Shown here: piece by piece, positions 6,575-49,906 of the stretch
Layout: each line of letters starts with the position of its first letter
Position numbering within the stretch: the stretch's first letter is position 1
Source: Endomicrobiales bacterium
Lineage (GTDB): Bacteria > Elusimicrobiota > Endomicrobiia > Endomicrobiales > CAWCFT01
DNA length: 64,000 nt
Reading direction: 5' to 3'
NCBI GenBank assembly: GCA_963794945.1
Contig: CAWCFT010000016.1
Coordinates: 1 to 64,000 of the forward strand
Notes under the pieces: generated by a model
The model's database searches: none
What the model was told of the DNA's origin: nothing
Seen by the model: the letters and a program-made list of their open reading frames with translations, nothing else
Made by a program: the position numbers and the translations under genes

Positions 6575-7706
6575 CTACCAAACTATTTCATACTTTACAC
6601 TTCTGCCTTTCCCTGCAACATGACGGATGACTCCCTTTTCCAGCATATCGTTGATCTCTCGGAATGCCGTAGCCCTGCTGGTTTTTGTCATACCAACATA
6701 CTTTCTGGTTGTCAGGTCGCCGGCAAAACCTCCGGGGCCAGCTTCGAGCAGTTTAGTCAGCGCCTTTCTTTGTCTTTCATTCAGCTGTGTATGGGTATGT
6801 TTTTTCCAGAATTCGGCCCTCTTGAAGACCTGAGAGATTATACTCTGCGAGTTCTCTATGGCGTCCCTGACGCATTGCAGGTACCATAGAAACCATTCAG
6901 TTACATCCGCCTTGCCGTTCTGCACGTTTTCGAGGACTTTATAGTAATCCTCCCTCGTCTTCATTATCTGCGAAGAAATGCTGTAAAACCTAACCTTAAG
7001 GCGCTCATCCTGGGCAAGAGCCATGTCAGCCAAGGCCCTGGCTATTCTTCCATTGCCGTCTTCATAAGGGTGTATCGTTATAAAACGCAGGTGTGCCGCC
7101 GAGGAACGCAATATGCCGTCCATTTTTCCAAGCGAGCCGTTCCACCACTCTATGAAAAGCTGGAGTTCTTTCTTTGCCTGTTCTTTTGGCGGCGCCTCAA
7201 AATGCACTTTTTCCCTGCCCATAGGCCCGGAAACCACCTGCATAGGCTCGTTTCCGCGCATTTGGCCGGCTTTTATCTTTTTTAGGCCCGAATACCCTGT
7301 AGGAAACAATGCCGCCAGCCAACCGTTAAGCCGGGCTATTGTCAGAGCTTTTTCATTATTACGTATCGCATCCAGCAGAGACCTCAACCAAACCATCCGC
7401 ATTCCTGTCCTTTACAACAACCCCGTGGGGCAGGCCGAGCCGGACTGCAACCGATGAACGAACCGCATCCCTGTTTAAGGCCATCCCTTCTATTTCCGCT
7501 GTCCTGACCGCCTCTTCAACAAGCACTTCGGCCTGCGCCTGGACTTCCTGCTTTATGTCCAGCAGAGATATTTTACCAAGCAGATTGCCCTGAGCCTTTC
7601 TTACATCGGCTAATGGGCCGATTAAAGCCCCTGAATCGGGACTGAAATCAAACCAGCCTGGTTTTTCCCAGATATATTTAGGCACTATAGACCTCCCGCT
7701 TTTCAT
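6575..7706 (-). CDS. Fic family protein with N-terminal DUF4172-like region and C-terminal wHTH; one frameshift near 7380
   Basis: Joins ORFs 7359..7706 (YIWEKPGW...TAEIEG) and 6575..7402. The Fic motif HPYEDGNGRIAR is intact. Confidence 0.88.
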
Positions 7707-7955
7707 GAAGCGTTAATCGCTTCATATTATGACACAATTATATAACATAATCGCTTCAATTACAAGCCCCCCAAATAAAAAATAATGGACAATAAATGCG
7801 GCTGTCCATTATTATTCCAACATATTGCCTATTATTTTAAACCAACACTTTTAGGGGTTTTTTGTCAAAGCAAGTGGGCATTATTTGTTTACAGCAGATA
7901 CTTAGCAGAAATTTATCCGTCGAAGTGTCTATTATTCCGTCAATGTGCCTGTCCT

Positions 7956-7993
7956 TTAAGAGTCGCCTGCTCTACCAATTGAGCTAGCGGTGC
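7956..7993 (-). tRNA. 5' half only of tRNA-Lys(CTT) (acceptor 5' strand, D arm, anticodon loop)
   Basis: Minus strand reads GCACCGC TA GCTC AATTGGTA GAGC A GGCGA CT CTT AA, then AGGAC instead of the required TCGCC. No T arm follows. Confidence 0.8.
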
Positions 7994-8056
7994 ATGAATA
8001 CTATAATAAATGACCTATAATCTGTATGAAATCCTAAACACCTATTCGCATTAGGA

Positions 8057-8104
8057 CAATTGTCCGCCGGAGGCGGATCCGCCTTGGGCGGAAGCTAGCG
8101 GTGC
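8057..8104 (-). repeat. Second tRNA-Lys 5' fragment split by two tandem 15-bp hairpins
   Basis: CAATTG + TCCGCCGGAGGCGGA + TCCGCCTTGGGCGGA + AGCTAGCGGTGC. Removing 8063..8092 restores CAATTGAGCTAGCGGTGC, identical to 7976..7993. Confidence 0.75.
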
Positions 8105-8372
8105 TTTGTTGTTACAAATATAGCTGTCTGCGATAGACTAAAAAAGCAAGCCGTTTTGTCATCTCATTTAGATGGCCAAATAGCTGCTGAAAACGTATTA
8201 TACAAAACTAATTGCTAATATTCAAATCCTAAAAGCAATTTTTAATAGGCGTGATAATCCTGCTGGCGCTATTCAATGGCAATCTATTGTCAACTGGGCT
8301 TTGTGCCGGTGAGCTGAAAAGGTTGTCTACTTGGCAGGTTTGCTCTTTGAAATTAAAGATCATGCCCACAGA

Positions 8373-9925
8373 TCAAACTATATAGGCGTCGACCTTTGTA
8401 GGTTTCTTATGGGTTATTACCCCGTCTTTTATCATCTGACGGGCCAATTTTATTATAGCCTGGCGCGAATCCTGTATCTGTTTTTCAGGGAATTTTGGCG
8501 ACAACTCTATCTTTTCTTTTAGCATCTTCCGCCCGTCTTCGGTACGTGTTTGAAGTATCTTGTCCATAAACTGGCCGGGCATACCCTGCGCCGCGATCAC
8601 CAGCTGGTCGTTCGATACTTCGCGCAGCAAGTGCCGCAAGTCCTTGTCCTCAAGATACCCTATATGCTCGAACAGGAACATACTGTCTTTTAGCTCTTTG
8701 GCAAGGTCCTGGTTCCTTTCTCCTATCTCATCAAGCAGTTTTTCCCGCGCCGCGTCATCAACAATGTCCAGCATGCCCATCAGCATCTCCGGGCCAAACA
8801 ATACGTAATCTATTTTTTTCTTGACGACATTTTCCCATTCGATAACTTTTTCCGGTTCCATATCGAACGTCTTGGTCAGCAGGTGGAGCACTTCATCCTT
8901 TTTCTCCGGGACCAGCGCTGAAAGGATAAGATGCGACTCCAATGGATCGAGATACGATATCGTAATAGCTATCTTCTCAGCGTCTTCGTTCCGTATCAGC
9001 CAGGCGAGCCGCGCCATGTTGTTCTCGTTAACAAACCCAAAATGCCGCGCCTCGATCTGTTCCTGTGTCTTTCCACCAGCCAGCAAACCCTCGTTAGCCT
9101 GCGGCAACCCCTTGCCGCCACCGCCAGTCTGCCCGTCTCCCAGCTCCGGCTTAATGGTCAGCTTGCCGTCAATCACGCTGCGGTTGACCTCTTCTTTAAT
9201 ATTAATTTTTCTGGCAGACACCATAGCGGCGAAATCTCCGGCCATCATCCTCAAAACATTGTAAAGAAGCAGCACTCCCAGCAGTACAACTGTCGTGTGG
9301 ACCACGAATTTCGCCGCGTCCATTATAAGTTCAGGCTTATGGAACTGCTCCATAAAGCCAGGTGGAGGAGGGAACGGTATCTTTCGTATCTCTATGCTGT
9401 CGCCTCTTCCCTTATCCATGCTCAAAACGCTCGCTACCAGGCTTGGCAGTTCGCCTATATGTTCGTCCTTTACCCGGTTGTCAACGAACATCTGTACGTC
9501 TATTTTTTTTATAACGGTCTGGGGCAGCTCAAAACTCTGTTCGGATGTGTGTTCATATTTGCCCGGCATTTGCCCGGCGCGCCGCTGCCCTCATTAACCG
9601 GAAATCCGGGCAGCATGTACTGCTGATTCTTTTTATCTTCCTGCCAAACCACAGCCGAGTTTGTAGTTGTTTGCTTGCCGCCGTCTATGCTGTACACATC
9701 CTTGGCCTTCTGTGACTGCACTGTATCAAGGTAAACATGCACGAACGAAACCACAGCTCCTTTGCCGATAATATTCTCGACAACGCTTGTCGCTTGCGAA
9801 GCGTACCACTGTTCCAGTTTCATCTTGTCATCAACGCTGTACCCACAGCCCACCCTGACAAAAACAGACAGAATAGCGGCGCTTAACGCGGTTGATGACA
9901 AAATATTTCTTTTTTTTATTTCCAA
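8373..9925 (-). CDS. FliF-like ring domain / TM / FliG middle and C-terminal domain fusion protein (about 517 aa); one frameshift near 9575
   Basis: Joins 9509..9925 and 8373..9569. Hydrophobic leader; VENIIGKGAVVSFVHVYLD...IKKIDVQMFVD...LVASVLSMDKGRGDSIEIRKIPF (FliF C-terminal ring motif); TM helix; LIRNEDAEKIAITISYL (FliG-M); MFLFEHI...LLREV...QAIIKLARQMIKDG (FliG-C). Confidence 0.8.
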
Positions 9926-10016
9926 CTGTTCCTCTTTAAAATCCTTATTATTGTCAATTTTGTTCCGGTATCATTTTAGCATTTATTTACGCTTATGCTC
10001 CTTGTCAGCGAATATT

Positions 10017-11883
10017 CTACCATTTTACGGCCGTACTGTTGTTCCCCCACTGGCCGACTGCGGGCGCGGGCGGCGGCGGATTTGCGCTGCTCTGTGCCTT
10101 AGCGGATGGTTCGGGAGCTTTTACATTGGCCGTTTCTGCGGCCCTTTCCTTCTTCACTTCCGGTTCAGCACCGCTTTCTTTGTAATGGCAGACTTGCTCC
10201 TTCCGACCTCACGCTCTCAAATCCCGTCTCATCTAAGGAGCATATTTTGAAAACATAATCTTCCCTGTTCCTCAAATATCCTTCTCCAATAGTATATTCT
10301 TTCGCCTTTACAGGCGACTCGTTCATTTTCCACCACACCTTTCCGAAATCCGGTTTCATATAGACATTATACCCGACAGCTGTCTGAACGGTCTTCCAGT
10401 ATAATCCTATCCCATTACCGTCAGATTTCAACTTAGCTGTTAAACCCTCCGGTGGTTTTATGTTTGGGGTAATGCACAGTACGGCAGCTGAATCTCCGCT
10501 CTCAACGCCGTTTGGCCCCGTTGCGGTTACCTTGAACCGGTATGCAGCGCTTGGCTTTAACCCTGTTACTGTATAGGACGCTTCACTTACCGGCTGCTTG
10601 TTCGCTTTCTGCCACACGGCTTGGCCAGCTCCAGTATAGTACACCGCGTACATAATACCTTTTCCTTCTATAGATTTCCAATTAACCTTCACTCCGCCGT
10701 TGTCTATCGAGGCTTTTACTTCGACTGGGGCGGCTAACCTTAACTTCTCATCCAAGTTCAACCGCCATATGTTCCACTTCATCCCGCGGTTGGAACAAAA
10801 ATATATGTAACGCCCGTCTTTTGACCATACAGGGCTGACATCCGCGGCGCTGTTCGTTGTCATTTGTTTCTGTGTTCCATCCTGCATGTCGGCTATCCAG
10901 ATATTAAAATCCCTCTTTCCAGAAGCTTCTTCCCCAAGCGCATCGCAGGAGAACACGATCGCTTTCCCATCCGGCGAAAAAGATGCGTCCCGGCATTCCC
11001 CATCAAGATTCGTTATCTGGCGCATAGGCTTGCCGTGCACATCCATGACCCAAACCTGGTTGTACTTACCGGACTCTTCTCCCGGCGACAGGAACACTAT
11101 CTGCTTACCATCTCCGGACACGCGCGGACAGCCGCCCTTCCGTAAATATGTGATGCCTCCGCTGTCATCGGCCACGCAGATGGCTTCTTCTTTTGATCCA
11201 GGCAGAAAGCTCGTAAATACAGTTGTCCGGCCGTCATCCGACACGCTCGGCTCAAATTGAGCCCCCTCGCCACCGGTCTGGTCTTTCAAGTTGCCCCTAA
11301 TGTCATCAAGGCGCATCGCCCATATCCTCGGTACGCCCGTAATATTCGAACAGAAATATATATCTTTGCCGTCATTTCCTATCCAGGGCGACTCTTGAAT
11401 GCATCCCTTTTTCGCGAAAACCACGTTCCCCATTTCTGTCCCATCAATGCTTACAGTCATAATGCTCGTTTCGCCATTAGCTTTCGCCGCCTGAAAACCC
11501 AGTGTTTTACCGTCGCCAGTTATTGACAGGTTTCCGATCATTGTCCCGTTAAAACTCGTTACTTTAGTCACCCCGCGCTGGTCATCGTTTTTCTCCACTA
11601 CCGACGCATTGCCTTTGCAGCTAAGTAGCTTGGTCTTATATATGTTTTTTGTGTCTCCCTTCCAGTAAAACTCATGCTCGTACATTTTACTGTACGGTTT
11701 TATCCCCGCGCAACCGGTTAATACGGCTGGCAACGCTACAACGGCCAACAACAGCAAAACAAAAGTAGCGGCGAAGCTTGCTTCGCCGCCGTTTGGCTTT
11801 AAGGCAACACCAGCAGAGCAAGCTCTGCAGCTACGTACATCATATTTATTGGCAGAGGAAACTCCGGGTCTACAAACTCTCAT
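10017..11883 (-). CDS. TolB-like PD40 beta-propeller lipoprotein with two FN3 domains and a Pro-rich tail; frameshift near 10200
   Basis: Lipobox LTGC; repeats SFSPDGKAIVF, PVWSKDGRYIYF; FN3 YTVTGLKPSAAYRFKVTA. A shifted frame continues EQVCHYKE...PPPPAPAVGQWGNNSTAVKW to TAG at 10017. Confidence 0.8.
11765..11834. repeat. GTAG-family REP doublet (REPIN-like) inside the 5' end of the TolB-like gene
   Basis: GTAGCGGCGAAGCTTGCTTCGCC on + and GTAGCTGCAGAGCTTGCTCTGC on - in inverted orientation, with compensatory stem changes. Confidence 0.7.
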
Positions 11884-13394
11884 TCTTTTATCTCCCTCAA
11901 GAACTCCTGAAGTTCAGGTATATTCGGATTTATCGCTAAAGCCTTTCTCCAAGCGTCTAATGCCTTCTCCTTTAAGCCTAACGCGTAATATGCCGACCCC
12001 AAGCGGGTATAAGCCAGTGCGTTATTAGGGTCAACCGTCACTACATCCATGCAGTCCTTGACCACAAGGTCATACTTTTTATCGTTGAAATTCTGTGTCG
12101 TGCGCTGGAGCTTCATTGCCACCTGCGTATCGGGCGATAAGGTTTCTTCAGCTAAAGTTGCCCCGTCTTTTTTCAGCATGGTCTCAAATGTTTTTAACAC
12201 CTGATTATCGGAATGCGCGCTTAATCCCTGCTGCACATTCAACAGCGCGCTGGAAGGCATATTGTTCAGGTAATCTGATACAGCTTTGCAGGTGTAATCG
12301 GCTACTTTCTTTTCGGCCTCGCTCAGCTTCGACGGGATATCGCTTAGCTCGGCCTGGTCCATCAGGCCCTTTAACTTTTGGAATTTCTTTTCGGCATCGG
12401 GCCTATCTTCAAGGTTCGTGGCGCTGCCGTACAGGTTCAGCGCCTTATTGAACCTGCCCTTTATTACCTGGGTATCACCCTGTTTGATGTAGTCTGCGAC
12501 TATTTTATTCCTCTGCTTCAGATAGATCCGAGCCAAATTTAACGCTGAACGATATCCTGTTAGATATGCCAAGCTCTGTGTTCTGCGCGAGCGCGTAATC
12601 AATCCGGTAATCTTTGAACGAATAACCTATGCCGGTGCTCATTTCTTCATAATTCAGCCCTATCCTCAGGAACAGAGGGGCCAAAGATATTTCAAAACCG
12701 GCATACCATTGATCCGGCATCTCATAATCTAACGCCATGGTCAGTTTATCATTGAACATTTTATGGCTGTAGCCTAAACGCAATATTAAAGGCATTGTAT
12801 CATCAGTGTTGTCCGCAAAACTAAAAATGTTGCCCGCCTTGACCGCGAACGCGGTTTTTTCGCTAAACCAGTAAGTACCTGCAAGGTCAAGGCTCATCAA
12901 AGTGCTGGAGTACGGCCCTACGGCCCTGGTCAAATAATTCACCGCTGTACCGATCGAAAACGCCTTAGTAAGCGCCTGGCCATAGCCAAACTTAAACCCC
13001 GTATCCGTTGCCCGCGAAATTGCCGGTCGGGATATTGTTGTCATCCCTGCCGTCAAACCCGGCGCTCGCCTGCCTGTACCACAGTAAGCCCAAAAGCCTT
13101 TCTCTGGGCGGTGGGAAACACGTAGCTTATCGCGTCGTAATTGGTTCCTTCCCATAACGTACTGTGCAGGAACGACGCTTCCTGGCTGTTCAACAGCTGC
13201 ATATTCGCGGGGTTCCAGTACGCGCTTGACGCGTCATCCGCAACCGCTGTAAAAGCTTTTCCCATGCCAAGCGACCTGGCGCCCATTCCCCAGTCAAATA
13301 TCTCCCCGGGCTGTCCGCCCACTGCGCAGTACGCAGAAAGTTTTAGGGCCAGCACCAGAGTCATGGTTAATGGAAACACCCTTTTTGTTTTCAT
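11880..13394 (-). CDS. PorV/PorQ (UPF0164-like) family beta-barrel fused to a C-terminal TPR domain; two frameshifts
   Basis: Joins 13053..13394 (GMGARSLGMGKAFTAVADDASSAYWNPA), 12505..13155 (barrel strands ending YRIDYA...SNRISFSVKF) and 11880..12602 (TPR: AYTRLGSAYYALG...WRKALAINP). Confidence 0.85.
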
Positions 13395-13448
13395 TGTATA
13401 ATTCTTGTTTAACTCTTTGATAGAATAACCAGATATCTGCCGCTATCG

Positions 13449-13615
13449 TGCATGGCGGAAGGTGCATAGTTCAGTGGGCAAGGTAAAGACTTTGAGTTTA
13501 ACCCTGCACCATGCGCCTAGCACCTTGCACAGTATTCCCAGCACCAAGTTACTTTCACCTTCAAATTCCAATGCACTGCTTTTTCTTACCGCTTACCACT
13601 TATGGCTTACCACTG
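13449..13615. repeat. Intergenic degenerate 7-mer repeat / hairpin tract
   Basis: GTGCATGG/GGTGCATAG units pair with CCTGCACCATGCGCC/GCACCTTGCAC; followed by CTTACCG CTTACCA CTTATGG CTTACCA heptads. Confidence 0.5.
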
Positions 13616-13620
13616 AAGTA

Positions 13621-16600
13621 TCAATGTACAACTCCTATTTTAATGACCACCGCGTTATCAGGTCCATCGGCGTCTGATGTTATTTTCACTATATAGCCGC
13701 CCATGCTTACTTTGCTGCCATTTTTATCTGTGCCGTCCCACATTACATCGTTACTGCCCAGAATACCTCCGTTGGATCCGCTGTTGCAGTCTATTTCATT
13801 GACAAAATGGCCGTATAGATCGTATATCTTTATTGTTATGTTGGAATTCTGGTTAAGTGTATAGTTTATGTCCACTTTGGCGTTCTTTGAATGGAAAGGA
13901 TTGGGGTATGCGGAAACCAGGGACAAAACTTCGCTGGACACTGCCCCAACCACCACTCTGGCTGCCGGTGTGAAATTTGACCATACACCTGCGCCGTTGA
14001 GAGCGCTCACGCGGAAGAAATAGGTACCATCCGGCAGATTGTTGAAAACGTAACTTGTCAGCAGGCTGTTTTCATCGCCCGGCGCTTTCTTTGCCGCCAG
14101 CAGCGCCGGCGCGGCGCTTAAGGTGAACGAAGAAACAGTTACCCACACTGGAGAAGTTCCGATACGCTGCTGCAGTTCATATGCCGCCACTCCCGAAACA
14201 CCTGTCTGCGCGGCGGGCCATGTCACCATGTAGGTAGAGCCGTCCTGGCTTACCGAAGGGACGCCGTTGACTGCGGGCGGAATAAGGTCAACGGTTATCC
14301 CGGCGCTTACGCCCGTACTGCTCCAGAGATTGAAGTTGCTTTTTGTTATTACAGATACATAATAAGTCTGCGCGTTTTGTAATGATAATCCCTGGGCCAG
14401 AATAGTCTGGTTTACACCGTTGTCAGTCCAGTTCTTGGCATCCACGCCGCCTGTTGTAGTTCCGATAGCATACCGGCAGTCAACGACCGTCCGCCAAGCA
14501 CCTGTGATTGCCAGGTTGCGTTCAACTCCTGGAAATGGCTGGTGTATATGCCGCTCGTAATAACGACAGGCATTGTTGGCGTCCTTACATCGCGGACTGT
14601 TGGTATTGCCGACATCAGCGGCAGGTTTTGGGGAGACACGCTGTCAGGGGCCGCTATATTGAAACAGGTTGTTGTTGATAACTGCACTCCCAGTGTTGCG
14701 TAAACAGTTGCATTTGGGTCAATATCACAGCTGATAATGTAATACTGATTTGTAGTGGTCAATACCTGTGGTGCTATGCTTATTGAAGCGACTCCTCCCA
14801 CAAATACCCCGGAGCCTATCAGCGGGTCAGCCTGGATATTAATAACGCCTGTGTCGTTTGTGTCGGAATATATCTTTACCGCTGTTACAAGCGAATCGCT
14901 CAGTGTCCCAAGTTTTGTGATCGTAATATTGCTTAAGGTCTCTTTATAGCTGTTTACGTGCAATCCCAACTGGAGAATCGGCGCGTTAAGCTGTCCCTGG
15001 TCCAATGTGCCGCCGGCGAGGTTCTTGCCTGAAACCAGAAGGGTATGTCCCATGTCGGTTATTCCAAACATCGTGCACGACCAAGGAAAGACGACGGGCG
15101 TATTGGATATAATGTTCGGTGAGTTTACGACAATACTTGTAGTATCAACGCTGATATAGTCTGCCGCGCCGACGGTGGCAGTTGGGCTGATATCTGCCAC
15201 AATAAGATACTGATACGTTTGCAGGCCAGGATTGTATATTGGCTCAGGGCTGATCATCTGGATCGTCGCCTTGCCGTTCGTGAACGAAACTGGGGCGCCT
15301 ATAAGAGTGCCGCTGGACACGATAGCGTTTCCTATTGCGTTCCGGTATATTTTAATGTCTGAAATATCCGTGTCGCTCCCGCCAAGGGACTTTGTAAGCG
15401 ACAAGTTCAGCTTAGACCATATCACCTGCAGGTTATTTGAACTCATGTTTAATATTCCAAGCACTCTATTAGTGTCGCCCTGCGTAACAGAGGAAAGTGT
15501 AGGCGTAGGAAGGGAAGGGACCACTGACACAGTATTGATCACGGCATTGATAGTGGTTAAGCCTGAATTAATAGGGAACCCTGAAGAGCTTACAGTATTC
15601 AGGCCATTGAGGCTGATATACCCCGCAGTTTGAAGGTTGATCCCGATCGTGTCGTTTGGCGCTGCCGTGTCGGAAACATCCAGCAGCACATAGAATGTTG
15701 TAAGCGCCGTTGTCAATGTTTGCGTTGACGATGTCAGGTCAATAAACACATATTGCGAGGACATAAATGGATTGGCCGTAAAGTTTATCTGCTGGTTATT
15801 TGAATTGTTAATACGTATCATGCTGATATCGCTGCCGGACGCCGTGCCGAACAGGGATAACCCTATGCCCTTCAATTGCGCGCTGTAATTGCTCGTATTC
15901 ATAACAAGTTTCAACATTTGCACAGAGTGTGTCCCCTGGTTTACTGAGCCAGTTGACAGGCTTACACCGCTCACGTTTACTGTCACCGGCGGCTGGTTAA
16001 TGGCCGTGGATTGAGAGGTAAAAACCCCTCCATTCGCGATGGCAACATTATACGGCGGCATCGGGACAGTGAAATAACTTGCATTCGGGAAATTCATCTG
16101 GAACGTCCCGTTCACCGTGGCGCTGCTGCTTATAGAAACTACCGCGAAATACGTCTGCGTGCTCGGGGTGATGGACTGCGGCGACGGGCTGCCGCCCTGC
16201 GAATTGGTCAGTATTATATTTGCCGTGTCCGATTTGAAAGTGTCGGTGCCATAACTTATCTGCGAAAGGCTCGAATCTGCGTTTTGTTTAAATACATTCA
16301 CGGTTGTTATATCGCTGTCCTGCAGGGACGGGGATCCGCCGCGTATCAGGTTTATCTGCAAAGCGTCCCAGGGTACTGTGGTCAATGTGGTCCATGCGTT
16401 GATCTTGACAATGCTTACATTTTGCGCGCCCTGGTTTACCGTGGTGGGGCCCGCGGATACCATTTGAACTGTCATAATGTCGGGATACGGATGGATAGAT
16501 GTTTGAACTGCCTGAATGACAGGGAAGTTCGCGGATGAGATATTGTTCGGGCTGTTAACAGTTATATAAGAGGTGTTTGCCAAACTCAACTGCACATAAT

Positions 16601-19600
16601 CGTAGGCTGCCGCGTTGGGGTTGATGTTTCGCCGCAATGTAATACGTTGCCGGCGTTCCGACGACTATTGTCTGTGGGCTCTGCTGAAGGGATATTGTTG
16701 CTGTTCCTGTGCTCGTTCCGCTGGCTGAAAATGTGGCTTGCGCGCCCGTAATTGGATTTCCGGAGCTGTCCAGTATCCTGACAGCTGAAATATCGCTGTT
16801 AGCGGCTGTGCCTATCTGGTCAATATTTATGCCTTTCCATATTACTGAGGTTTGATCGGCTGACATAACAAACTGCGCCAGCTTCACATTAGTTGCCCCC
16901 TGGTACACCGTTGACGGCGCCACAAACCCTGCGACAGGCGTAACAGTAAGCATATTGACAGCCGGGTTAATAGCCGCGGGGCTTGTAGTAAAATAGGGCG
17001 GGCTGCCTGCCACAATGTTGGAACCGTTTACAGTAACCGCGGGGCACGTTAACCCAAACTTTATGCCTGTCTCAGAAATTAGAGATACATCCGCGGTAAC
17101 GAAATAAAGCCGGCGCGTTGTGGTCACAGTTTCATTCGGTGTCAGTGTCATGGAACCGCCGCTTGAGAAAACACCGGAGGACACAAGCACATCTCCCCCT
17201 GATTTACCAACAAACACACCGGCGCCGTTATCGCGCCATATAGATATATCTTTAATGTCAAGGTCGGGTGAGTTCCAGTTTGAAGCCGCCGACGCGTTTA
17301 TGGTCATGGTTTTCAGTACTGCAGAAGTGATGTCTGTCTGCATGTAGAAAGTTGCCATTACTATATTGAGCTGCCCCTGGATCACGGTTTGGGGCGCTAC
17401 GTCTGATGACGTTATGGTCAGTGTGCTGGGCGGGCTGACGATAGCCGCGGTGGAACTTAAAACAGGCAAATTGTTCGCTCCCATAGGCAGGCCGGACGTC
17501 AGGTTAATATAGCTGATGTCCGCTATCTGCGCTCCCGCGGTGTCGCCAATAGTGGCGCCTGGGGCAACGTCATAAGTCACGTAATACGTCTTTACGGTTG
17601 TACTGCTCACGGTTTGCGGCGCAACGCTTATAAAAGCGCGGGCCGGGCTGTAGCTGCTGAACGTTGCCGAACCCAGCAATACGTCCGTTGGCGGGCCGGC
17701 ATATATACCGCTCCCGTTATCAAGGTATATCTTGGCATAGCTTATATCGCCGTTCAAAACTGCCGACGGGAGCCGGTCAACCCGTACCTGGTTCCAGGTG
17801 GAAACGCCGGAAGAGGCCGTAACGCTGAACCTTAGCATAGCCACATTGCTCTGCCCCTGAACAAGGCTCGCGCCAGCGCCAAGGTCAACAAAACCGGACA
17901 CATACGTCCCGTTAAACAGGAGGGCGGGGCTAATGCCGGTTATTGTGGGTGTTGAAATATCTGTCGCTGTAATATATAAATTTTCCACATTATAATCATT
18001 TACCTGGAACGTATAAACGCCGTTATCCGATGATATGAACGTGTGCGAGTTAGGCGTTATTGTTTGGCTTCCGGCTGAGGTAAAAACCGCTGTTCCAGTA
18101 TAGGCATTTGCTATATTGCCGTACTGGTCGTATGCCGTAGCCGTAACAGACATGCTGTTGCCCACTGTTGCCGCGCCGCTGTATGTGAGGCCGAAATAGC
18201 TGGCAGGGCCGGCAGTGATCTGTTCTGTCTGCTGGGCCGGTGTATAACCGCCTCCGCTTGCAGTAAGCGTAGGAGAGCCAACAAGCGAATCGCGGTAATA
18301 AAAACTGACGCTCTTACTGCCCGACGGGAGCGTTACAAATGTGATCCCCCATGGGCCCGAGGCTGAACTGCCGAATTGCCCCTGCCCGGAACTGCTTTGA
18401 AGGTTGACGGTTATTGTCTGGGTTGATGCCACGGCGTCACCCATATTGTCCTGGGTCTGAACGGTTAGTATTGAAGAAGCGCTGTTTTCCGACAGTGTCT
18501 GGGAAGATGTCGCGAACATCAGCTTTGTTATTACACCGGTAATAGTGCTTGTTGAACTTGTAATTGGAAGGTTGTTTTGCCCCATAGGCAGGCCGGAAGT
18601 AATGTTAAAATAGCCGAGGCCCGCTATCTGCGCTCCCGCGGTTTTGCCTATCGTTGCGTTAGATGGGACGTCATAAGTGACAAAATATGTATTCACTGTG
18701 GAACTGCTCGCGGTTTGCGGCGTTATATTGATAACCGCGTAGCCCGGGCCGGTCCCGCTGAATGTCGCTGAACCCAGCAATACATCCGCCGGAGTATAGG
18801 TTCCGCTGCCGTTATCAAGGTATAGTTTCGCGTAGCCTATGTCGCTGTTTGAGCTTGTCCCCAGCCTGTCAACCCGCACGCTGTTCCACGTTGATGTGCC
18901 GGATGATGCCATAACGCTGAACCTCAGCATAGGCACATTGCTTTGGCCCTGCACAAGGCTCGCGCTCGCGCCCAGGTCAAGCGCGCCGGACACATACGTC
19001 CCGTTAAATTGGAGGGCTGGGCTTACACCGGTTATTGTGGCTGTTGAAACGTTTGTCGCGACAATATAAATCTTTTCCACAGTGTAATCATTGACCTGGA
19101 ACGTGTAAGAACCGTTATCCGCTGATACAAACGCGTGCGAGTTGGGCGTTATTGTCTGGCTTCCGGCTGAAGTAAAAACAGCTGTCCCTGTATAGGAACT
19201 GGCTGTATTGCCGTATTGGTCGCACGCCGAGGCCGTGACCGGCATGCTGTTGCCTATGGTTGCCGAACCGCTGTAAGCCAGGCTGAAATAGCTGGCGGGG
19301 CCGGCCTGGATAGTTTCTATTTGCTGGGCCTGAGTATACCCGCCCCCGCTTGCTGTCAGCGTCGGGGTGCCGGAAAGCGAGTCGCGGTAATAAAAACTGA
19401 CGCTGTTGCTGTATGCCGGGAGCGTTACAGATGTGATCCCCCACGGGCCTGATGTTGAAGTCGCGAACTGGCCATGGCTGGAGGTGGTTTGAAGATTAAC
19501 CGTTATTGTATTGGTTGATGCCTCAACATTGCCTGAACTGTCCTGCGTCTGAACTGTAATAACCTGGGAAACGCTGTTCGCGGACAGTGTCTGGGCGGAC

Positions 19601-22600
19601 GTGCTGAACCCCAGTTTCGTGATCACGCCGGCCACCGTGCACAAGGAACTCGCCGCTGGCAGGTTGTTTGAGCCCATGGGCAGGCCGGTTACGCCAAAAT
19701 AGCCTGTGTTTAATATCTGCACGCCTGCTGTGCCCTGCGCCGGGCCCAGGGCGATGTCGAAGGTTACAAAATAAGTATTCGTTGAGCCGACGCTCAGCGT
19801 TTGCGGCGCCACGCTGATAGTAGCGCTGGTGCCCGGGCTGAAAGTCCCGGAACCGATGCAGGTATCCTGCGCGATGTTAAACGACGAACTGCCCGAGGGC
19901 GCGAGGTATATCCTGACACAGCTTATATCGGTATTCGGAACTGTACCGGTAAGGTCCAGGCGCACGCTGTTCCACACGGCGGTACCGGACGACGCTGTCA
20001 TATTGAACAACAGCATAGGCATGTTTGTCTGGCCCTGCGACAGGGTAGCGCCGGCCTGGTTGGCAACGCTGGTAACATATATGCCGTTAAACTTCAGGGC
20101 CGGGCTCATGCCGGTTATTGTATGATTTGTGAAGTCGGTCGCGGTTATGTACAGCGTTTCAACTTTAGGATCGCTGATATTGATTATATGAGAGCCGTTA
20201 TCCGTTGCGGGCACAAAAGTGTAAGAGGCGGGCGTTATTGTCATACTGCCGGTTGAAGTAATGACCGCGGTTCCGGAATAAGATTTAGCGATATAGCTAT
20301 TCTGGTCGTAAGCAGTGACCGTTACCTGTTCATTGCTTCCAACAGTTGGCGTGGTCGTGTATGTAACCGTGAAATAGCTGGCGGGGCCGGCAGTGATATT
20401 TTCTGTCTGCGCTGTTGACACCACCACGCCGCTGATAGTAGCTGTAGCGGTCAATACCGGCGCGCCCATAACCGTATCTTTATAATACAAATTGACGCTG
20501 GCTGTGTAGGCGGGAAGAATTACCGATGTTATTCCCCACGTGCCCGCGGCGTTCGCGAACGTGCCGCCCGGGGAGTTGCTTGCCAGGTTGACCGTTATCG
20601 CCTGCCAGGTTGATATCGCCACATTGCCGCTGTTGTCCCGCCCCTGGATTGTTATTATTGAAGAACTGCTTTGAGCGACTATCGATTGGGGAAGCGTCGC
20701 GAAGCCCAGCTTTGTTATGGGATTTACATTTGTTATATTCGCCGTGCGTGTCAGCGCTCCGCCGTAAAAATTGTAAATTGTGTTTCCCGGGGAAGCGTTT
20801 ACGTCCGTAAAAGAGGAATAAGCCACGGTTTCGCCGGCTCCCGCGCCCTGATAATTCAGGTAACAGGGTTTGTTGATCGTCCCCGATTTTATCAGAGCCG
20901 AGTTTACGTTAAATGCTGTGGTTATTGTTGACGTTGAACCCGAGCCATTGATAAGAGAACCGCCTGAAGGAATGGTTAAAGAATTGCAATTAAGACCTGA
21001 ATCAGTCGTAATCGAGTACGCGCCATCCACAACGGCATCCCATGCCATGCCTCTGGACCCGTAAAGAGACAGCGGTGAACTTATAACTAAAGTTGAGCCC
21101 AGTGTTGACATTGAGCCTGACGTGTAGGTTATACTGTTCCCCCCAAAATAAACATTCCCTAATAATGTGATCGAGTTTGCGCCTCCGTTAAAAACGATAT
21201 TTGACGTTATCGTGCTTACGCCTTGCGACCAAACTGAACTCCCCGAAGCGGCGTTAAGTGTAATGGTTTGCCCGGAGAAATACCCCGTGTTAGATGCGAT
21301 CAGATTTCCCGTGACCGTAATATTGCTGTTGCTGCCGGCCAGAGCCAGCGCCGCTGTAGTATTCAGGCTCTGAACCAGGGTATTCGGCTGGCCCAGCGTA
21401 AGTGTTATGGGTGAAATACAGCTTATATTGGGCCAGGTATTCGTGCTATCGCTGATCCCGCAGTTGCCGACTAAATATAATGTTGAGCCTGCCAATGACA
21501 AGATCCCTGAGGTATAAGTTAACGTTGGGTTGTTTGTACCTCCAAAATAAATGCCGCCGCTGACTGTTATTGTGCTTGTGGCCGCGCCGTTAAAAGTTAA
21601 ACTGCCGTTAAGAACCCCGCCGGCCGAACTCAAAACCGCGTTCCCTGAAGCGCCTGTCATTATGATCGGATAAGCACTTGCTAGGTAGTATGCGCCTAAA
21701 GTTACACTACCGCCAACAGTGATACTGCTGCCTGCTATTACTAAAGGAGCACAGTCAGCAGGATAAGTGATATTATTAGTTGATAAACTTCCGTTTATTG
21801 TAGTGGGTTGAGTCAGCGTGAGCGAACATGCTACACCAGGATAATAACTAACTATATTATTCCACTGTTTAGTCGAGTCATTAAGAGTGACGCCGTAATA
21901 AACATTAAGGGTAGAACCTGTTGTGGTTAAATTAGCCCCGGACGAGGCAAGAGATGTAATGTTACTGAGATAGGCATAGACATTTCCTGAAACAGTCACA
22001 GGCCCGGTTATTACAAGATTAGTACCAGTATATAAGTAGCCGGAGCCGCTGAGACAGGACCAGACTGCTGATCCGGAAGACCCGTTCATTGTAATAGTCG
22101 TGGCGCCGGAGGCGCAGTATATATAACCCCCAAGTGTTAAACTGCCGCCAATAGTAATGTTATTGCCATAGATTTGAAGGTAAGCCGGACCACTCGACAG
22201 GCTTCCTGAAATTGTAGTGGGCTGTCCTAAAGTAAGGATACCACCGCTAGAATAAGCGCTAATATTATTCCAGGTATTTACTGTGTCATTTAACGTCATA
22301 CTGCCATTAACATTTAATGTTGAGCCTGTTGTAACCAAATGCCCTGACACATATGTTATGGCATTACCCCCGCCATAATACACGTTCCCGCTGACTGTTA
22401 TTGTGCTTGTGGCCGCGGCCTGAAAAGTCAGCTGATTTGACACATAATAGCCTACTGCTGTTGCCGACCATGTAGCGTTGCCTGTAGTGGCAGCTGTCAT
22501 GGTAATTGGAGTGCCTGTGATATACCCGTTTGCTGTCAAATTTCCACCGATAGTGATGGGGTTGGCAGCCAAAGCTATATAGCCGCTTAAACTTCCGCTT

Positions 22601-24720
22601 ATTGTTGTGGGTTGAGAAAGCGTAAGCGTGGGTACCACAGTAACTACCTGGCCGGTTATATTGTTCCATGTATTTACAGAGTCGGTTAATGTCGCTGGGT
22701 ACTGAAGAATTAATGTTGAGCCCGTTGTAACCAAATGCCCTGACACATATGTTATGGCGGGATTAAATGAAGAACCATAATACACATTCCCGCTGATTGT
22801 TATTGTGCTTGCGGCCGCGGCCTGAAAAGTCAGCGGGTTTGCCACATAATAACCTGTTGACGACCATGTCCCGCTGCCGGTAGTGGCCGCTGTCATTACA
22901 ATCTGGCTGCCTGTGATATAACCATAAGCCGACAAATTTCCTCCGACATAGAGGTTGCTGCCTGCTAAAGTTAAAGTGCCGCCGGGATAGGCGCTTAAAT
23001 TTCCGCATTTTGTGGGTTGAGAAAGCGTAACCACGCCGTAACCGGCTATATTGGGCCAGGTATTTGTGCTGTCGACTATCGTACAGTTGCCGACTAAATT
23101 TAATGTCGAGCCCGCTAAAGCCAAATTGCCTGACACATATGTCAAGGGAGAATTGTTCGCGCAGCCGTAATACACGTTCCCGCTGACTGTTATTGTGCTT
23201 GTGGCCGCGGCCTGAAACGTAAGCGGATTTCCAATATAATCAGCGGCGCCTGATGACGACCATGTCGCGTTGCCGGCAGTGCCTGTCATGATAATTGGAA
23301 CGGTGCCTGTGATCTCGCCGGAAGCCGTCAAACTTCCGCCTATAGTGAGGGAGTTCCCAGCCAAAGTTAAAACATAGCCGGGATAGCCGCTTAAACTTCC
23401 GCTTATTGTTGTGGGTTGAGAAAGCGTAAGCGTAGTGGTATAATAATTAGCTATATTATTCCAGGTGTTAGTGGCATCGGTCAAAGTAACGTTGCCATAG
23501 TAACCGTAGACATTTAAAGTCGAATTTGTGGTAGTTAAGTTAGCGCCGTTAGAATTAAGGGTTGTCCCACCGTAATAAACATTCCCTGAAATTGTCACAT
23601 TTCCGGTAATTGTAAGGTTATTATAGATAAAGCCGAGGCTGCCGGCGCTCCACGTTCCGCCTGTTAAACTTACACCAGCTGTTCCCATCAAATAACCGCC
23701 CGCCGCAACGCTTACGCCATTACCACAAACAAGGCTCGAGCCGTTGCCAGTATTCAAAGTAACAGGATAATTCGTTGTCACCAGCCCGCTTGCGGTAAGA
23801 TTTGAAAGCAAGGTGTCAGTTTGAGTTCCATAAAAAAATATATTGTTCCAGGTAATTCCATTTGTGTTTAAATTACTGCCGGCAAGATAGTTAAGGTAAA
23901 GCGTGGAGCCGGTTGTAACAACTCCATAAGTAGACGGCGTATAGGTTAAGGTTGGATAACTGGCTCCGCCAAAAACAAGATAGGAACCGTTTGAAATAGT
24001 GACTGTGCTTATACACGGGCAAATTGTCAATGGATTTGCAATTATAAATGTTGTGTTAACGCAGTTGAAAGCGCCGCCCTGCAGATAAATATTGGTGGTG
24101 CCTGCTGCTCCAGGGAGGGCTGAAACTGTCATGCCGTTGTTACAATACAGGTTTTTGTTCAACAAACTGGTTGCGGCTGAAAAAGTCGTTAATCCGGCAA
24201 CTGTAAAATTAGCGCCCAATGTAACGTTGCCGGCGCAAGCAAAATTAACGCTCCCGGGGAATACAGTGGTGTTATTGGGCGTAATAGTCACGGCGCCTGA
24301 TATAATCAGCTGTCCTGTTCCGACGCAGGCTCCTCCGGTTCCTGAAGGAAATTTGATAACGGCGCCGCTGTCGCCGTTTGTTACTGTAAGTATGGCGCCG
24401 CCGGAACCAAAATTAAGCGTGCCCGCGTAACCCGTGCAGTTCAATGAGCCGCAAATGCAGGAAGCGTCGGGTATGTAGCAGGTTGTTCCATTTGTCAGGG
24501 TTGTTGTTGAATTTTGGTCAAAATACACGGTATCGGCTGTTGTGGGCACCGCCGCGTTGTTCGGGCCGCCGCTCGTGGTTGACCAGTTGGTGGGCCCCGT
24601 AACGTCCCAGTTAGCGTTCAGGCCGCCGCCCACCCAATACCTGGCCGCGGCATGGGCATCCTTCGCCCAGCATGCGAGGCATAATAGGGCTGCTATTGTT
24701 AGTAAGAGTTTCCTGTTCAT
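13621..24720 (-). CDS. Giant (~3,700 aa) secreted surface protein/adhesin: beta-helix-like repeats, Ig-like repeats, FN3, C-terminal FlgD-Ig/T9SS-like sorting domain; frameshifts near 16630 and 14490
   Basis: Joins 16555..24780 (start MNRKLLL at 24720, signal peptide ending AHA), 14412..16637 and 13621..14445. Rejoined junctions read YYIAANINPN and GGTVVDCRYAIGTT. C-terminus is AYPNPF...IKIYDLYGHFV...WDGTDKNGSKVSMGGYIVKI. Confidence 0.88.
17500..20720 (-). repeat. Three tandem ~1,090-bp (~362-aa) Ig-like module repeats within the giant gene
   Basis: GAAATAGCTGGC(G/A)GGGCCGGC (AGPASYF) recurs near 20371, 19285 and 18193; each unit begins ITKL(G/M)F. Confidence 0.85.
21100..24100 (-). repeat. 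~390-bp (~130-aa) beta-helix-like repeats within the giant gene
   Basis: Near-identical DNA blocks (TGACACATATGT...CGCTGA(C/T)TGTTATTGTGCTTG(T/C)GGCCGCGGCCTGAAA) near 22315, 22711 and 23101, with more diverged copies near 21480, 21900 and 23510. Confidence 0.85.
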
Positions 24721-25284: not shown

Positions 25285-25782
25285 TTACTTCTTTTCTCTT
25301 GCTATTTTTAGCGTCTCATAGTCTCTCTGATCGGACGCCTTTTTGCGACCGCGGTGATCCATGTCTTTGACCAAACCCTTATTTTTAATAAGGTCGTTCA
25401 ATCCTATATAATAAGCAACTATACCGCCGTATTTCCCTTTTACCCTGTGCTGCATTATTTCACCGTCATCTAACCCCGTCAGCCCGTTGCAAAGCTCTAT
25501 CTGGTTAGGTTCATACCCTATGCGGACTATAACTGTTTTGTCTGTGTTAAAATAGTTGCTATCAATGCCTTCTCCATTAAATTCCCTTATTGCGGCTGCT
25601 ATTTTATTAGAATTATCTTTTGTATGCGCGATATAAAAATCTATATCTCCTGTAGAACGCGGCTCGGAATGGAACGAAACAGCGTATGCTCCGGTTATGC
25701 AATAATCCACCTTGTGTTTATTGAGGAGTTCTATAAATTCTTTAAAATCATTTTTTATTTCTATTTTATCTTTCATGACCAA
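25285..25782 (-). CDS. Pol-beta superfamily nucleotidyltransferase (DUF6036-like)
   Basis: DFKEFIELLNKH.V.Y...GAYAV..H..PRSTGDIDF...LIKNK...R...D..D. Confidence 0.8.
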   Translation of the reverse strand: MVMKDKIEIKNDFKEFIELLNKHKVDYCITGAYAVSFHSEPRSTGDIDFYIAHTKDNSNKIAAAIREFNGEGIDSNYFNTDKTVIVRIGYEPNQIELCNGLTGLDDGEIMQHRVKGKYGGIVAYYIGLNDLIKNKGLVKDMDHRGRKKASDQRDYETLKIAREKK

Positions 25783-48185: not shown

Positions 48186-49906
48186 AATAAATTGTATTCC
48201 TTTAGTATGGTGGATGGTATCTTCTTAATAAGCACCCGCTCATCAAGCACTTCCGATGGAACACCAACGGCGACGTTAGTAAAGATTGTTAAATGTTTAA
48301 ATTTCTCTCTTTCCAAGCCAGCAATAATTTTATCGTAGAGTTCTTCATTTAATGTAGCTATATCTCTCGAAGCAAAAGAGATCGCGAAATGATACCTTGC
48401 AGACTGATGTCTACCAAGATATACATTTTCTTTGTCGAGCCATTCGGATTTTTGTGGCCGGTATTGGAAATGCAAAAATATTGCCTCGGACATTTCCGCG
48501 GCTTTCAATTTCCAATTCATATCTTGACCGTTAATTAGACTCTCGCCGAGTTTGTAATATTTGAAACCACTACCACCTTCCCAATTAATATCTTTACTCA
48601 CCCCTGTTTGATCTTCTCCGTTTATCACTTTTTGCAAGCGGGGAACTATCAATTCTTCTGCTTGTCTACCCATTTCCACCATTAACCATTGTCGCCCCAT
48701 TTTATGAGCAACTGCACCAGTGGTTCCTGAACCAGCAAAAGAATCACAAACTATATCACCAACCTCTGTTGATAACTCTAGAACTCTTCTGATAAGTGGC
48801 TCTGGTTTCTTCCCATTTTTAAAAATGACTGCACCCTCTGAAGCAATACCTGTCCAAGAAATATTGGTCCAAACATCGGTAATCACCTCTCCAGGTACAG
48901 TATCGCCATTAATATTGATTAATCTTTTGTCATAAAAAAGTATTTGTTCGCCATTAAGTATGTAGAAGCCTTCAACGTCTTCATTAACATGAACAAACAC
49001 TTTTCCATTATTATTTTTAGATTTTTGAATAGTTGCCGCACGTTTTTTGGCAGCACCACCACCAATGGCGGCAGTACGAAATACTCGATCTGCATTTTTT
49101 ACAGCAAATTGAGATATTTCATAAAGAAAACTATTTCCTAATATTTGCTTTGCCTTTTTAGGATTCTCGTAACCTTGCAGCTTGGCGACAACATCAGCTA
49201 TGTTTTCCCACTGCCATTTTTTATAAGGCAAAGATTTGTCATTCAATACTTTGTTATAAGCAGAATCATAATCTTTCCGTATGTAAACCTTTTTTAACGG
49301 ATAACCTATTTTCTCTTTCGCATATACCAATAAGTAGTTGGCTGTAGAAAATATTTTTCCCCCTGTCGCTTTGAATCCTGATGGATCGTTAGTCGTAATA
49401 CAAATAGTATTGCAATAATTTTTTCTACCAAATATTTCGTCGAGTAAAATTTTAGCGTAGGCCATCTCTGCAGTATCAAGGTGCACAAATATCAAGCCAT
49501 CTGTTCTTAAAAGTTTCCTAAGTAAAAAAAGCCTATCTCTCATCATTGTCAACCATTCCGAGTGTTCAAGATTGTCATCGTATTTTTCAAATGCAGTGCC
49601 CGTGTTAAATGGCGGATCAATATAAATACATTTGACTTTATTTTTTTCTGGTTTTCCTTTAAACATTTCAACTAAACTTCTAAGAACCAAAAGATTATCC
49701 CCTTTTATGAGCATATTATTACTTGTTACATCACCATAGCTTTGTTCAAACCTTAAAATACGCGGCTCGGCAACTCGAATATCATTTTTTGGCACCCAAA
49801 CAGGACGGACGCCCTTTCCTTCTTTCTCATCTATTTCATAGAAGAGAGAAAGGTCTTTATTAATCCAGTCAAGCCTTAGTGAACCTTTGTAACTTTTATT
49901 TACCAC
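48182..49906 (-). CDS. mod: Type III R-M adenine methyltransferase Mod subunit
   Basis: IKGDNL, IYIDPPF (motif IV), KKPEPLI, DSFAGSGTT (motif I); overlaps res by 4 bp. Confidence 0.92.
   Translation of the reverse strand: MVNKSYKGSLRLDWINKDLSLFYEIDEKEGKGVRPVWVPKNDIRVAEPRILRFEQSYGDVTSNNMLIKGDNLLVLRSLVEMFKGKPEKNKVKCIYIDPPFNTGTAFEKYDDNLEHSEWLTMMRDRLFLLRKLLRTDGLIFVHLDTAEMAYAKILLDEIFGRKNYCNTICITTNDPSGFKATGGKIFSTANYLLVYAKEKIGYPLKKVYIRKDYDSAYNKVLNDKSLPYKKWQWENIADVVAKLQGYENPKKAKQILGNSFLYEISQFAVKNADRVFRTAAIGGGAAKKRAATIQKSKNNNGKVFVHVNEDVEGFYILNGEQILFYDKRLININGDTVPGEVITDVWTNISWTGIASEGAVIFKNGKKPEPLIRRVLELSTEVGDIVCDSFAGSGTTGAVAHKMGRQWLMVEMGRQAEELIVPRLQKVINGEDQTGVSKDINWEGGSGFKYYKLGESLINGQDMNWKLKAAEMSEAIFLHFQYRPQKSEWLDKENVYLGRHQSARYHFAISFASRDIATLNEELYDKIIAGLEREKFKHLTIFTNVAVGVPSEVLDERVLIKKIPSTILKEYNLL

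Follow-up and report, generated by a model that had tools for sequence, protein, structure and literature searches.

The first 64,000 nucleotides of contig CAWCFT010000016.1 of an Endomicrobiales bacterium (hereafter, the window) contain a four-gene operon. It encodes a giant secreted protein with a C-terminal sorting domain (CTD) resembling those of the Bacteroidota type IX secretion system (T9SS), a PorV-family outer-membrane barrel with a TPR domain, a PD40 protein, and a fusion of the flagellar proteins FliF and FliG. We found the fusion in 68 of 201 genomes of the phylum Elusimicrobiota. All 68 of these genomes also have the stator protein MotA, which is present in 74 genomes overall, and only two of them have FlhA (five of 201 overall); neither a FliG-like match nor MotA was found in 126 genomes. 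This assembly, in which the rotor and stator of the flagellar motor are combined with T9SS-like surface components, is real, spans the phylum and is apparently undescribed. We consider it likely that the fusion and MotA/MotB form one non-flagellar machine. Our preferred reading of the whole, an ion-driven ring motor that works without a flagellum and acts on a surface protein or adhesin, has a little less than an even chance of being correct.

The window corresponds to C16:1-64000 of the source genome, G000 (2.9 Mb, 85.9% complete); codes with G denote the 201 phylum genomes, those with L denote extracted loci, and f2, f20 and f25 are families. The fusion query matched 72 of the 201 genomes, and 68 were retained after four ordinary FliG matches were dropped (G062 and G123 were examined directly, while G104 and G170 were judged from weak single matches together with FlhA). 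Related genomes are not independent; therefore, all phylum counts are descriptive. Gene neighborhoods were analyzed for 58 fusion genes in 57 loci, which were picked from the best and from spread matches and not at random. The locus counts leave out the source-genome loci, four duplicates, the flagellar-cluster loci L073 and L099-L103, and L105 (G123:C153:1-3381), a 3.4-kb contig with separate fliF and fliG genes, the genome of which has no MotA or FlhA match and is possibly mis-binned.

The FliF-FliG fusion and its stators

The fusion gene (8373..9925, minus strand, ~517 codons with one frameshift) encodes a signal peptide, a periplasmic RBM3-like domain, one transmembrane helix (~9243-9317), a Gly-rich linker, FliG_M (8808-9011) and FliG_C (8415-8729). 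The FliF-like/FliG identity proposed in the initial annotation was confirmed by three approaches. First, Pfam matches to the window gene are FliG_C (E value 1.5e-21), FliG_M (1.1e-7) and YscJ_FliF_C (1e-4, below the cut-off). Second, a profile of 28 fusion homologues compared to the PDB matched the FliG middle and C-terminal domains (E 1e-67), Salmonella FliF 241-520 (E 2e-7) and SpoIIIAG (E 3.6e-4). Third, in a model of the intact fusion of genome G049 (mean predicted local distance difference test score, pLDDT, 74.7; predicted template modeling score 0.35), residues 40-195 aligned with FliF RBM3 231-438 (Z 13.3, root-mean-square deviation 1.6 Å over 95 residues), and the C-terminal domain aligned with FliG_C (Z 16.4, 1.0 Å over 89 residues). 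Compared to the FliF of a flagellated relative, residues 230-383 alone align (probability 95.6). At most 63 residues precede the RBM3-like domain in 95% of 141 sequences, and the linker following the transmembrane helix has a median of 33 amino acids; this is too little sequence for RBM1/2 and FliG_N. By homology and structure models, the protein consists of FliF RBM3, one membrane helix and the two FliG domains M and C; RBM1/2 and FliG_N are missing. The hydrophobic stretch at its N terminus resembles a cleavable signal peptide. Gly-Gly is retained in 55 of the 58 fusions and the acidic torque pair (D288/D289) in 53; the EHPQ motif, which we take to be the FliM-binding site, occurs in none. 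A scan of genome contigs with a single protein gave nothing, and a broad alignment gave no usable pattern.

The initial annotation overlooked the MotA/MotB(/MotB) stators and a dedicated TPR domain, both of which co-occur with the fusion in nearly every case. Three fusion cassettes are present in the source genome (on C16, C4 and C3); in each of them, a barrel-TPR gene and a CTD gene come before the fusion gene. Stators are encoded as motA-motB-motB on C12 and as motA-motB on C4, with a MotA of the flagellar type (E 3e-45) and with the ion-binding Asp and the wall-binding OmpA-like domain that define a MotA/MotB stator. A ring is unable to supply energy alone; the stators would supply it. Besides the stators, a scan of the whole genome revealed TolQR, ExbBD and a SprA-like gene. 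FlhA, flagellin, FliM/N (PF01052) and the FliF N-terminus (PF01514) gave no match in this 85.9%-complete genome, and the controls matched. When the open reading frames of a relative's flagellar cluster (by position and general knowledge, presumably flhA, flhB, fliF and hook-type genes) were compared to the source genome by tblastn, only FliG, an ATPase and generic proteins matched. The earlier statement that flagellar genes are absent is thus correct as regards the structural and export genes that were searched for, but not as regards motA and motB, which are located on other contigs.

At least one MotB with the ion-binding Asp was found in 37 of 38 loci. Tandem motB pairs (for example, L095:985-3157) combine Asp with Asn in 12 loci and Asp with Asp in 11; the Asp/Asn pairing suggests an asymmetric stator. 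A compensatory change between MotA E98 and FliG R281 was considered and rejected: E98 is mostly replaced by Gln in the linked MotAs, but this is also the case in two true flagellar MotAs of relatives, the FliG partners of which keep Arg. In genome G130 (L065:8800-9000), the TAG stop codon of a fusion is followed by an in-frame motA; one search reported a single open frame of 865 amino acids there, but the translation shows the stop codon.

It should be noted that the fusion could belong to an ordinary flagellum, intact or in decay, whose other genes are missing from an incomplete assembly. The completeness of the source genome (85.9%) is compatible with this, as are the frameshifts in all four window genes (the cargo near 16650 and 14500, the barrel near 13060 and 12510, the PD40 gene near 10200 and the fusion near 9585). 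However, of 94 conserved genes from other parts of the assembly, about 24 are likewise split across frames (a rough count with some double entries), and G049 has intact cargo, barrel and fusion orthologues in identical order (41-66% identity in the best segments); therefore, assembly error is a likelier cause of the frameshifts than decay. Furthermore, 66 of the 68 fusion genomes lack FlhA, many of them being at least 95% complete; there are 2-5 fusion paralogues per genome with intact orthologues, and fliF and fliG are separate genes in the flagellated relatives. The single polypeptide, with RBM3 and FliG M+C only, is not an ordinary flagellar FliF/FliG pair, as the initial annotation had also held. 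The remnant explanation is largely refuted already, and we regard it as very improbable.

The genome G049 (99% complete) represents the minimal system, with one fusion, one motA-motB-motB set and no FlhA or CheA match. The fusion module is absent from the two small-genome families f2 and f20, which, judging by their genome size, are probably gut symbionts or otherwise gut-associated. An extension of the range beyond the phylum was not accepted: two of 13 named fusion records are labelled as outside the phylum, but may be mis-binned or mislabelled and were not counted (one of them, a 3.8-kb contig, belongs to a genome in which fliF and fliG are found as separate genes as well). As a lead only, the Atlas includes related clusters of long proteins with FliG from Cloacimonadota, Bdellovibrionota, Balneolota, Myxococcota and others.

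Surface components and their linkage to the fusion

The four genes are co-oriented on the minus strand (8373..24720). The giant gene and the barrel gene are 226 bp apart, the barrel and PD40 genes overlap by 4 bp (11880-11883), and 91 bp separate the PD40 gene from the fusion; the places, co-orientation and gaps agree with the initial annotation. The conservation in relatives that the initial annotation had set as a test was also seen: in addition to the intact order in G049, PorV or MotA is found near 56 of the 58 fusions. PorV is directly upstream of 26 and within three genes of 36, MotA is adjacent to or near 36, and a CTD gene is located within four genes upstream of 31. Distances in the fusion tree are mirrored by those of the neighboring PorV (rho 0.96, 26 pairs) and of the neighboring MotA (rho 0.86, 35 pairs; L065, which has two fusions, was left out of the MotA tree), with 0 of 2000 permutations reaching these values in either case. 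Fusion paralogues of the same genome are further apart than average. The mirrored distances, combined with the distant same-genome paralogues, show that the cassette was duplicated as a unit.

The giant gene (13621..24720, minus strand) runs from the ATG at 24720 to the stop codon at 13621, with 3,699 codons in three frameshifted pieces. The encoded protein consists of a signal peptide, a Thr/Ser/Gly-rich N-terminal part, repeated modules, an FN3-like region and the CTD. No Pfam or NCBIfam family was found in its first 2,721 amino acids, and an Atlas search with the first 1,300 gave matches under 0.9 only; the protein is likely to be a surface adhesin. The CTD (13624..13908, minus strand), a FlgD_ig or T9SS type A-like sorting domain, matches FlgD_ig (E 9.6e-11), Por_Secre_tail (27.2 bits, cut-off 27) and TIGR04183 (24.9, cut-off 23). 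The predicted cargo of about 3,700 amino acids with a FlgD-Ig tail is thus confirmed, and the CTD-tagged cargo that characterizes a T9SS is present, just above both cut-offs; there are 25 CTD-like open reading frames in the source genome.

The barrel gene (11880..13394, minus strand, three frameshifted pieces) matches UPF0164 (1e-6) and TPR_1 (2e-11), and its intact G049 orthologue (54-66% identity) matches NF033709 with 105 bits (cut-off 90), in support of the proposed fusion of a PorV-family barrel to TPRs. The assignment is at the family level only, since the protein is not a PorV equivalog (30 bits versus a cut-off of 250 for true PorV). The best Foldseek matches of the barrel model (pLDDT 88.8) are 8gl6_F and 6h3i_F, which we take to be PorV chains.

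The C-terminal part of the barrel protein (11883..12518, minus strand) is a TPR domain specific to fusion-bearing genomes, a candidate periplasmic linker. The profile that defines it (A5) was built from 29 fusion-adjacent barrels and is partly circular; it matches 68 of the 201 genomes, 67 of which are among the 68 fusion genomes. No match was found in 63 f2, 58 f20 and four flagellated f25 genomes. For the 29 fusions outside the training set, the domain was found within five genes in 15 cases. There are exactly three open reading frames with this domain in the source genome, one per fusion cassette. Where the barrel differs, the domain is kept as a separate protein, which in most cases has a signal peptide and is encoded next to the fusion or motB. 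For example, in five loci of another fusion clade (L049, L052, L066, L111 and L112), an unannotated barrel-like protein of 560-680 amino acids takes the place of the PorV barrel, and a stand-alone TPR protein with a signal peptide follows motB. A complex prediction for three RBM3 domains and the barrel TPR domain (score 0.01, mark 0.32) gave no verdict and was used neither way. Given the frequencies of MotA (68/68), the TPR domain (67/68) and FlhA (2/68) in the fusion genomes, we define the core as the fusion, MotA/MotB, the TPR linker and the barrel.

These linkages bear on the possibility that the motor is real but has another job, such as type IV pili or envelope remodeling, with the barrel and cargo being merely co-regulated neighbors. 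One motAB pair of the source genome adjoins pil genes, the barrel neighbor has been lost from several operons, and links to twitching or gliding are proposed in the accessible part of Uzun et al. (10.1101/2022.07.08.499144). Against this, the TPR domain accompanies the fusion nearly throughout the phylum and in all three source-genome cassettes, and PorV distances mirror fusion distances across paralogues; we consider another job improbable.

The PD40 gene (10017..11883, minus strand) encodes a PD40 beta-propeller and FN3 protein with a lipobox-like LTGC (Pfam PD40 4.2e-31, and fn3). The initial annotation had seen it as a PorE-like core part. PorE consists of TPR, propeller, CRD and OmpA_C parts, according to the accessible text of PMC9127263. 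Both roles were rejected: the protein has no TPR or OmpA_C match, and PD40 proteins are found beside only two of the 58 other fusion genes, where they have ordinary signal peptides and no lipobox. The window fusion groups with that of G049 and two G177 copies, and PD40 is present in three of these four; the protein is an accessory limited to the window's subclade. A strong hairpin with a T-rich tail (11767-11790) is located within the unusually long 5' end of the gene; a promoter and terminator scan of 7700-14000 revealed nothing decisive.

Secretion, sensing or surface movement

The initial annotation placed the operon in T9SS-like surroundings and proposed that the ring replaces or complements the PorLM motor. 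The surroundings are indeed T9SS-like. The source genome has a SprA/Sov-like gene (G000:C5:38927-44457, >1,770 codons; TIGR04189 E 7e-41, 139.5 bits versus a cut-off of 200) and 33 PorV-like open reading frame matches, so that the PorV-family barrel of a T9SS is present at the family level. GldK/L/M/N, listed as T9SS ring and motor components in the accessible text of 10.1101/031039, were not found in the source genome; in the phylum, GldM was found in 0 of 101 genomes, GldL in 101 genomes gave one weak match, and GldK matched in 13 of 61, all below the cut-off (no T9SS-positive control genome was included in either search). SprA-like genes are present in 178 of the 201 genomes, none above the cut-off, and PorV-family genes in 99 of 101 sampled genomes, including 58 of 60 from f2 and f20.

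In a narrowed form of this proposal, the ring and stators might power the export or release of the giant CTD cargo via the SprA-like translocon and would be an addition that serves very large substrates. This would agree with the SprA-like and PorV-like genes, with the missing GldK/L/M/N and with the size of many fusion-adjacent cargoes (2,000-3,800 amino acids). However, 99 of 121 f2 and f20 genomes (43/63 and 56/58, respectively) keep SprA-like genes without the fusion, MotA or the TPR domain, the only CTD protein of some cassettes has ~140 amino acids, and the TPR domain is found at only three of the PorV-like loci of the source genome. Since the secretion core is found without the motor in these families, the motor is an added module; the ring is not a general stand-in for PorLM, and we consider it unlikely to energize secretion. 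That a phylum other than Bacteroidota widely has the SprA/PorV/CTD machinery, and apparently no GldKLMN, reopens the question of how the translocon is energized.

Another explanation is a sensor: the FliG ring would not rotate but be tethered to the adhesin, the stators would bind to it, and load or surface contact would be signaled to nearby signaling proteins by the flow of ions or by stator occupancy; the ring may also be a static scaffold. R281 of FliG is reported to be important for torque, and an acidic residue of FliG is linked to stator assembly (PMC6079164, accessible part; FliG residue roles are also treated in the accessible part of PMC12505986). The loss of the torque arginines and retention of the acidic residue fit a sensor, as do the Asn of the second MotB in 12 of 23 tandem pairs, the kinase, receiver or GAF-type genes (cluster U0) in 29 loci, and the cyclic di-GMP riboswitches described below. 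Conversely, the ion-binding Asp and Gly-Gly are kept, and single charge changes in Vibrio FliG (R301A) still allow rotation (PMC6079164, accessible part). In addition, several paralogous rotor-stator sets per genome would seem costly for a sensor. We consider this explanation doubtful, to the same extent as a role in secretion.

Our preferred reading, the ring motor acting on an adhesin, would work as follows; its steps, from ring assembly and rotation to binding and a motility phenotype, are proposed from domain identities, gene linkage and structure models. The signal peptide of the fusion would be cleaved, and the protein would oligomerize into a ring in the inner membrane that carries the FliG torque domains from the outset. 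The stators, composed of MotA and one or two MotB paralogues and held at the wall by the OmpA-like domain of MotB, would engage FliG_C and turn or load the ring, probably one way because FliM/FliN and the EHPQ site are gone. The dedicated periplasmic TPR domain would tie the ring to the PorV-family barrel, and the barrel may hold the CTD-tagged giant protein after its export via the SprA-like translocon of the phylum. As its output, the machine would move a surface adhesin, put it under tension or turn it over, and the cell would thereby move on surfaces or control its attachment. Of the three paralogous cassettes, one is in the window, and its stators are encoded elsewhere.

Regulatory neighbors were found in some of the loci. 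Type I cyclic di-GMP (c-di-GMP-I) riboswitches are located ahead of 12 of 14 loci of the TPR-tailed fusion clade, fitting a surface-lifestyle role. In the source genome, two are in tandem ahead of a paralogous cassette (G000:C3:44564-44910; L096:13565-13912), and two others precede a CTD cargo gene (C7) and a large cluster of genes for secreted proteins (C4). Directly before the C3 cassette there is a che cluster (G000:C3:32000-44400; L096) that encodes two CheC-like proteins, CheD, CheB with an H-NOX-like tail, and an FtsA/MreB-like protein. CheC-like proteins share their fold with the FliM middle domain and, by analogy, are a possible switch substitute. Chemotaxis as a required partner was rejected as a general feature. 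Very long coiled-coil genes follow fusions of the TPR-tailed clade (cluster U1; G000:C3:49052-58676); a scanned example contains no Pfam family.

Several observations weigh against the preferred reading. PorV is not near 22 of the 58 fusions, and no TPR gene was found within five genes of 14. No stator gene adjoins any of the three source-genome cassettes. Joint duplication is no proof of binding, as neighbors co-duplicate without binding. The position of R281 is occupied by R/K in six of the 58 fusions and that of R297 in none; the window fusion itself is divergent, with Asp at the R281 position and FG instead of Gly-Gly. c-di-GMP-I riboswitches were found in none of the eight other loci, the window's subclade among them. 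The CheA dimerization domain is present in only 12 of the 68 fusion genomes (cheA is within ~11 kb of the fusion in three of these: G000, G151 and G054), indicating that steering is not general. Finally, there is no obvious rod or bushing through the peptidoglycan in the operon.

In its most specific form, the hypothesis is that of a motor-only counterpart of the flagellum, and in this sense the injectisome in mirror image: MotA/MotB1/MotB2 would drive a rotor ring made of one protein, and this ring, connected by the periplasmic TPR linker to a PorV-family barrel, would move a T9SS-like adhesin and provide a new type of gliding or surface motility in free-living Elusimicrobiota and perhaps other phyla. 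We put this forward tentatively, with somewhat less confidence than the general form. If true, it would be a natural minimal rotor-stator system, with one ring protein and MotAB and no export gate or switch, which would bear on the origin and re-use of the flagellar motor and on the parts that torque requires. The parts are few enough for reconstitution in a laboratory host. It would also explain the orphan motAB and fliG genes of non-flagellated Elusimicrobiota, including magnetotactic ones: the accessible part of Uzun et al. (10.1101/2022.07.08.499144) reports many such homologues in non-flagellated free-living members and calls their role unclear. Outside its supplements, which may bear on the matter, that part does not mention the fusion, the barrel or the operon. 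The terms FliG, PorV, MotA and motility were not found in 10.1101/765248, and Elusimicrobiota are not mentioned in the accessible part of PMC12505986. The literature search, with most subscription papers outside its reach, gave no description of the fusion or the operon.

Elsewhere in the window, a Fic/DUF4172 gene in two open reading frames (6575-7706) is directly downstream of the fusion, and a small nucleotidyltransferase-like gene (25285-25782, weak Pfam matches) is upstream of the giant gene. A low-GC (36%) gene pair (45459-49906) resembles, by eye, a type III restriction-modification methylase and helicase. An Rfam search of the window gave no match.

Relation to known systems

The assembly is neither a flagellum nor, on present evidence, a canonical T9SS. 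It resembles the flagellar motor core (the FliF MS-ring, FliG and MotA5B2/PomA5B2) in the RBM3 fold, FliG M+C, the Gly-Gly linker and the acidic torque pair, and the flagellar stator in its flagellar-type MotA and its MotB with Asp and an OmpA-like domain. Unlike the flagellar motor, it has a single rotor polypeptide with a probably cleaved signal and one transmembrane helix, without RBM1/2 and FliG_N; FliM/N, the export gate, hook and filament are missing, R281, R297 and EHPQ are lost, and there are often two MotB proteins, several paralogues and linkage to a barrel-TPR protein and CTD cargo.

Like the T9SS and gliding machinery of Bacteroidota, the system combines a SprA-like translocon, PorV-family barrels, a type A-like CTD and giant putative adhesins, and would tie an ion-driven motor to an adhesin. 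However, GldK/L/M/N were not found, the motor is of the flagellar type and in the inner membrane, and the barrel matches at the family level only and has a TPR tail. The PD40 protein differs from PorE in having no TPR, CRD or OmpA_C. The stand-alone RBM3-like domain is shared with the SpoIIIAG ring (E 3.6e-4; Z 8.5), a sporulation channel with no FliG and no stator. The Myxococcus AglRQS-Glt gliding motor likewise combines one A with two different B subunits, and TPR linkers in the periplasm connect it to an adhesin platform at the outer membrane; AglRQS differs in being TolQR-like and in lacking a FliF/FliG ring.

A precedent for the rotor itself is a natural FliF-FliG fusion in another non-flagellated bacterium, Chlamydia, which keeps RBM2, has no SpoIIIAG-like domain and includes an M-like part of FliG only (PMC4768692, accessible part). 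The fusion described here has the reverse domain set, with RBM3 and FliG M+C kept and stators present; according to the same text, artificial FliF-FliG fusions in Salmonella still rotate.

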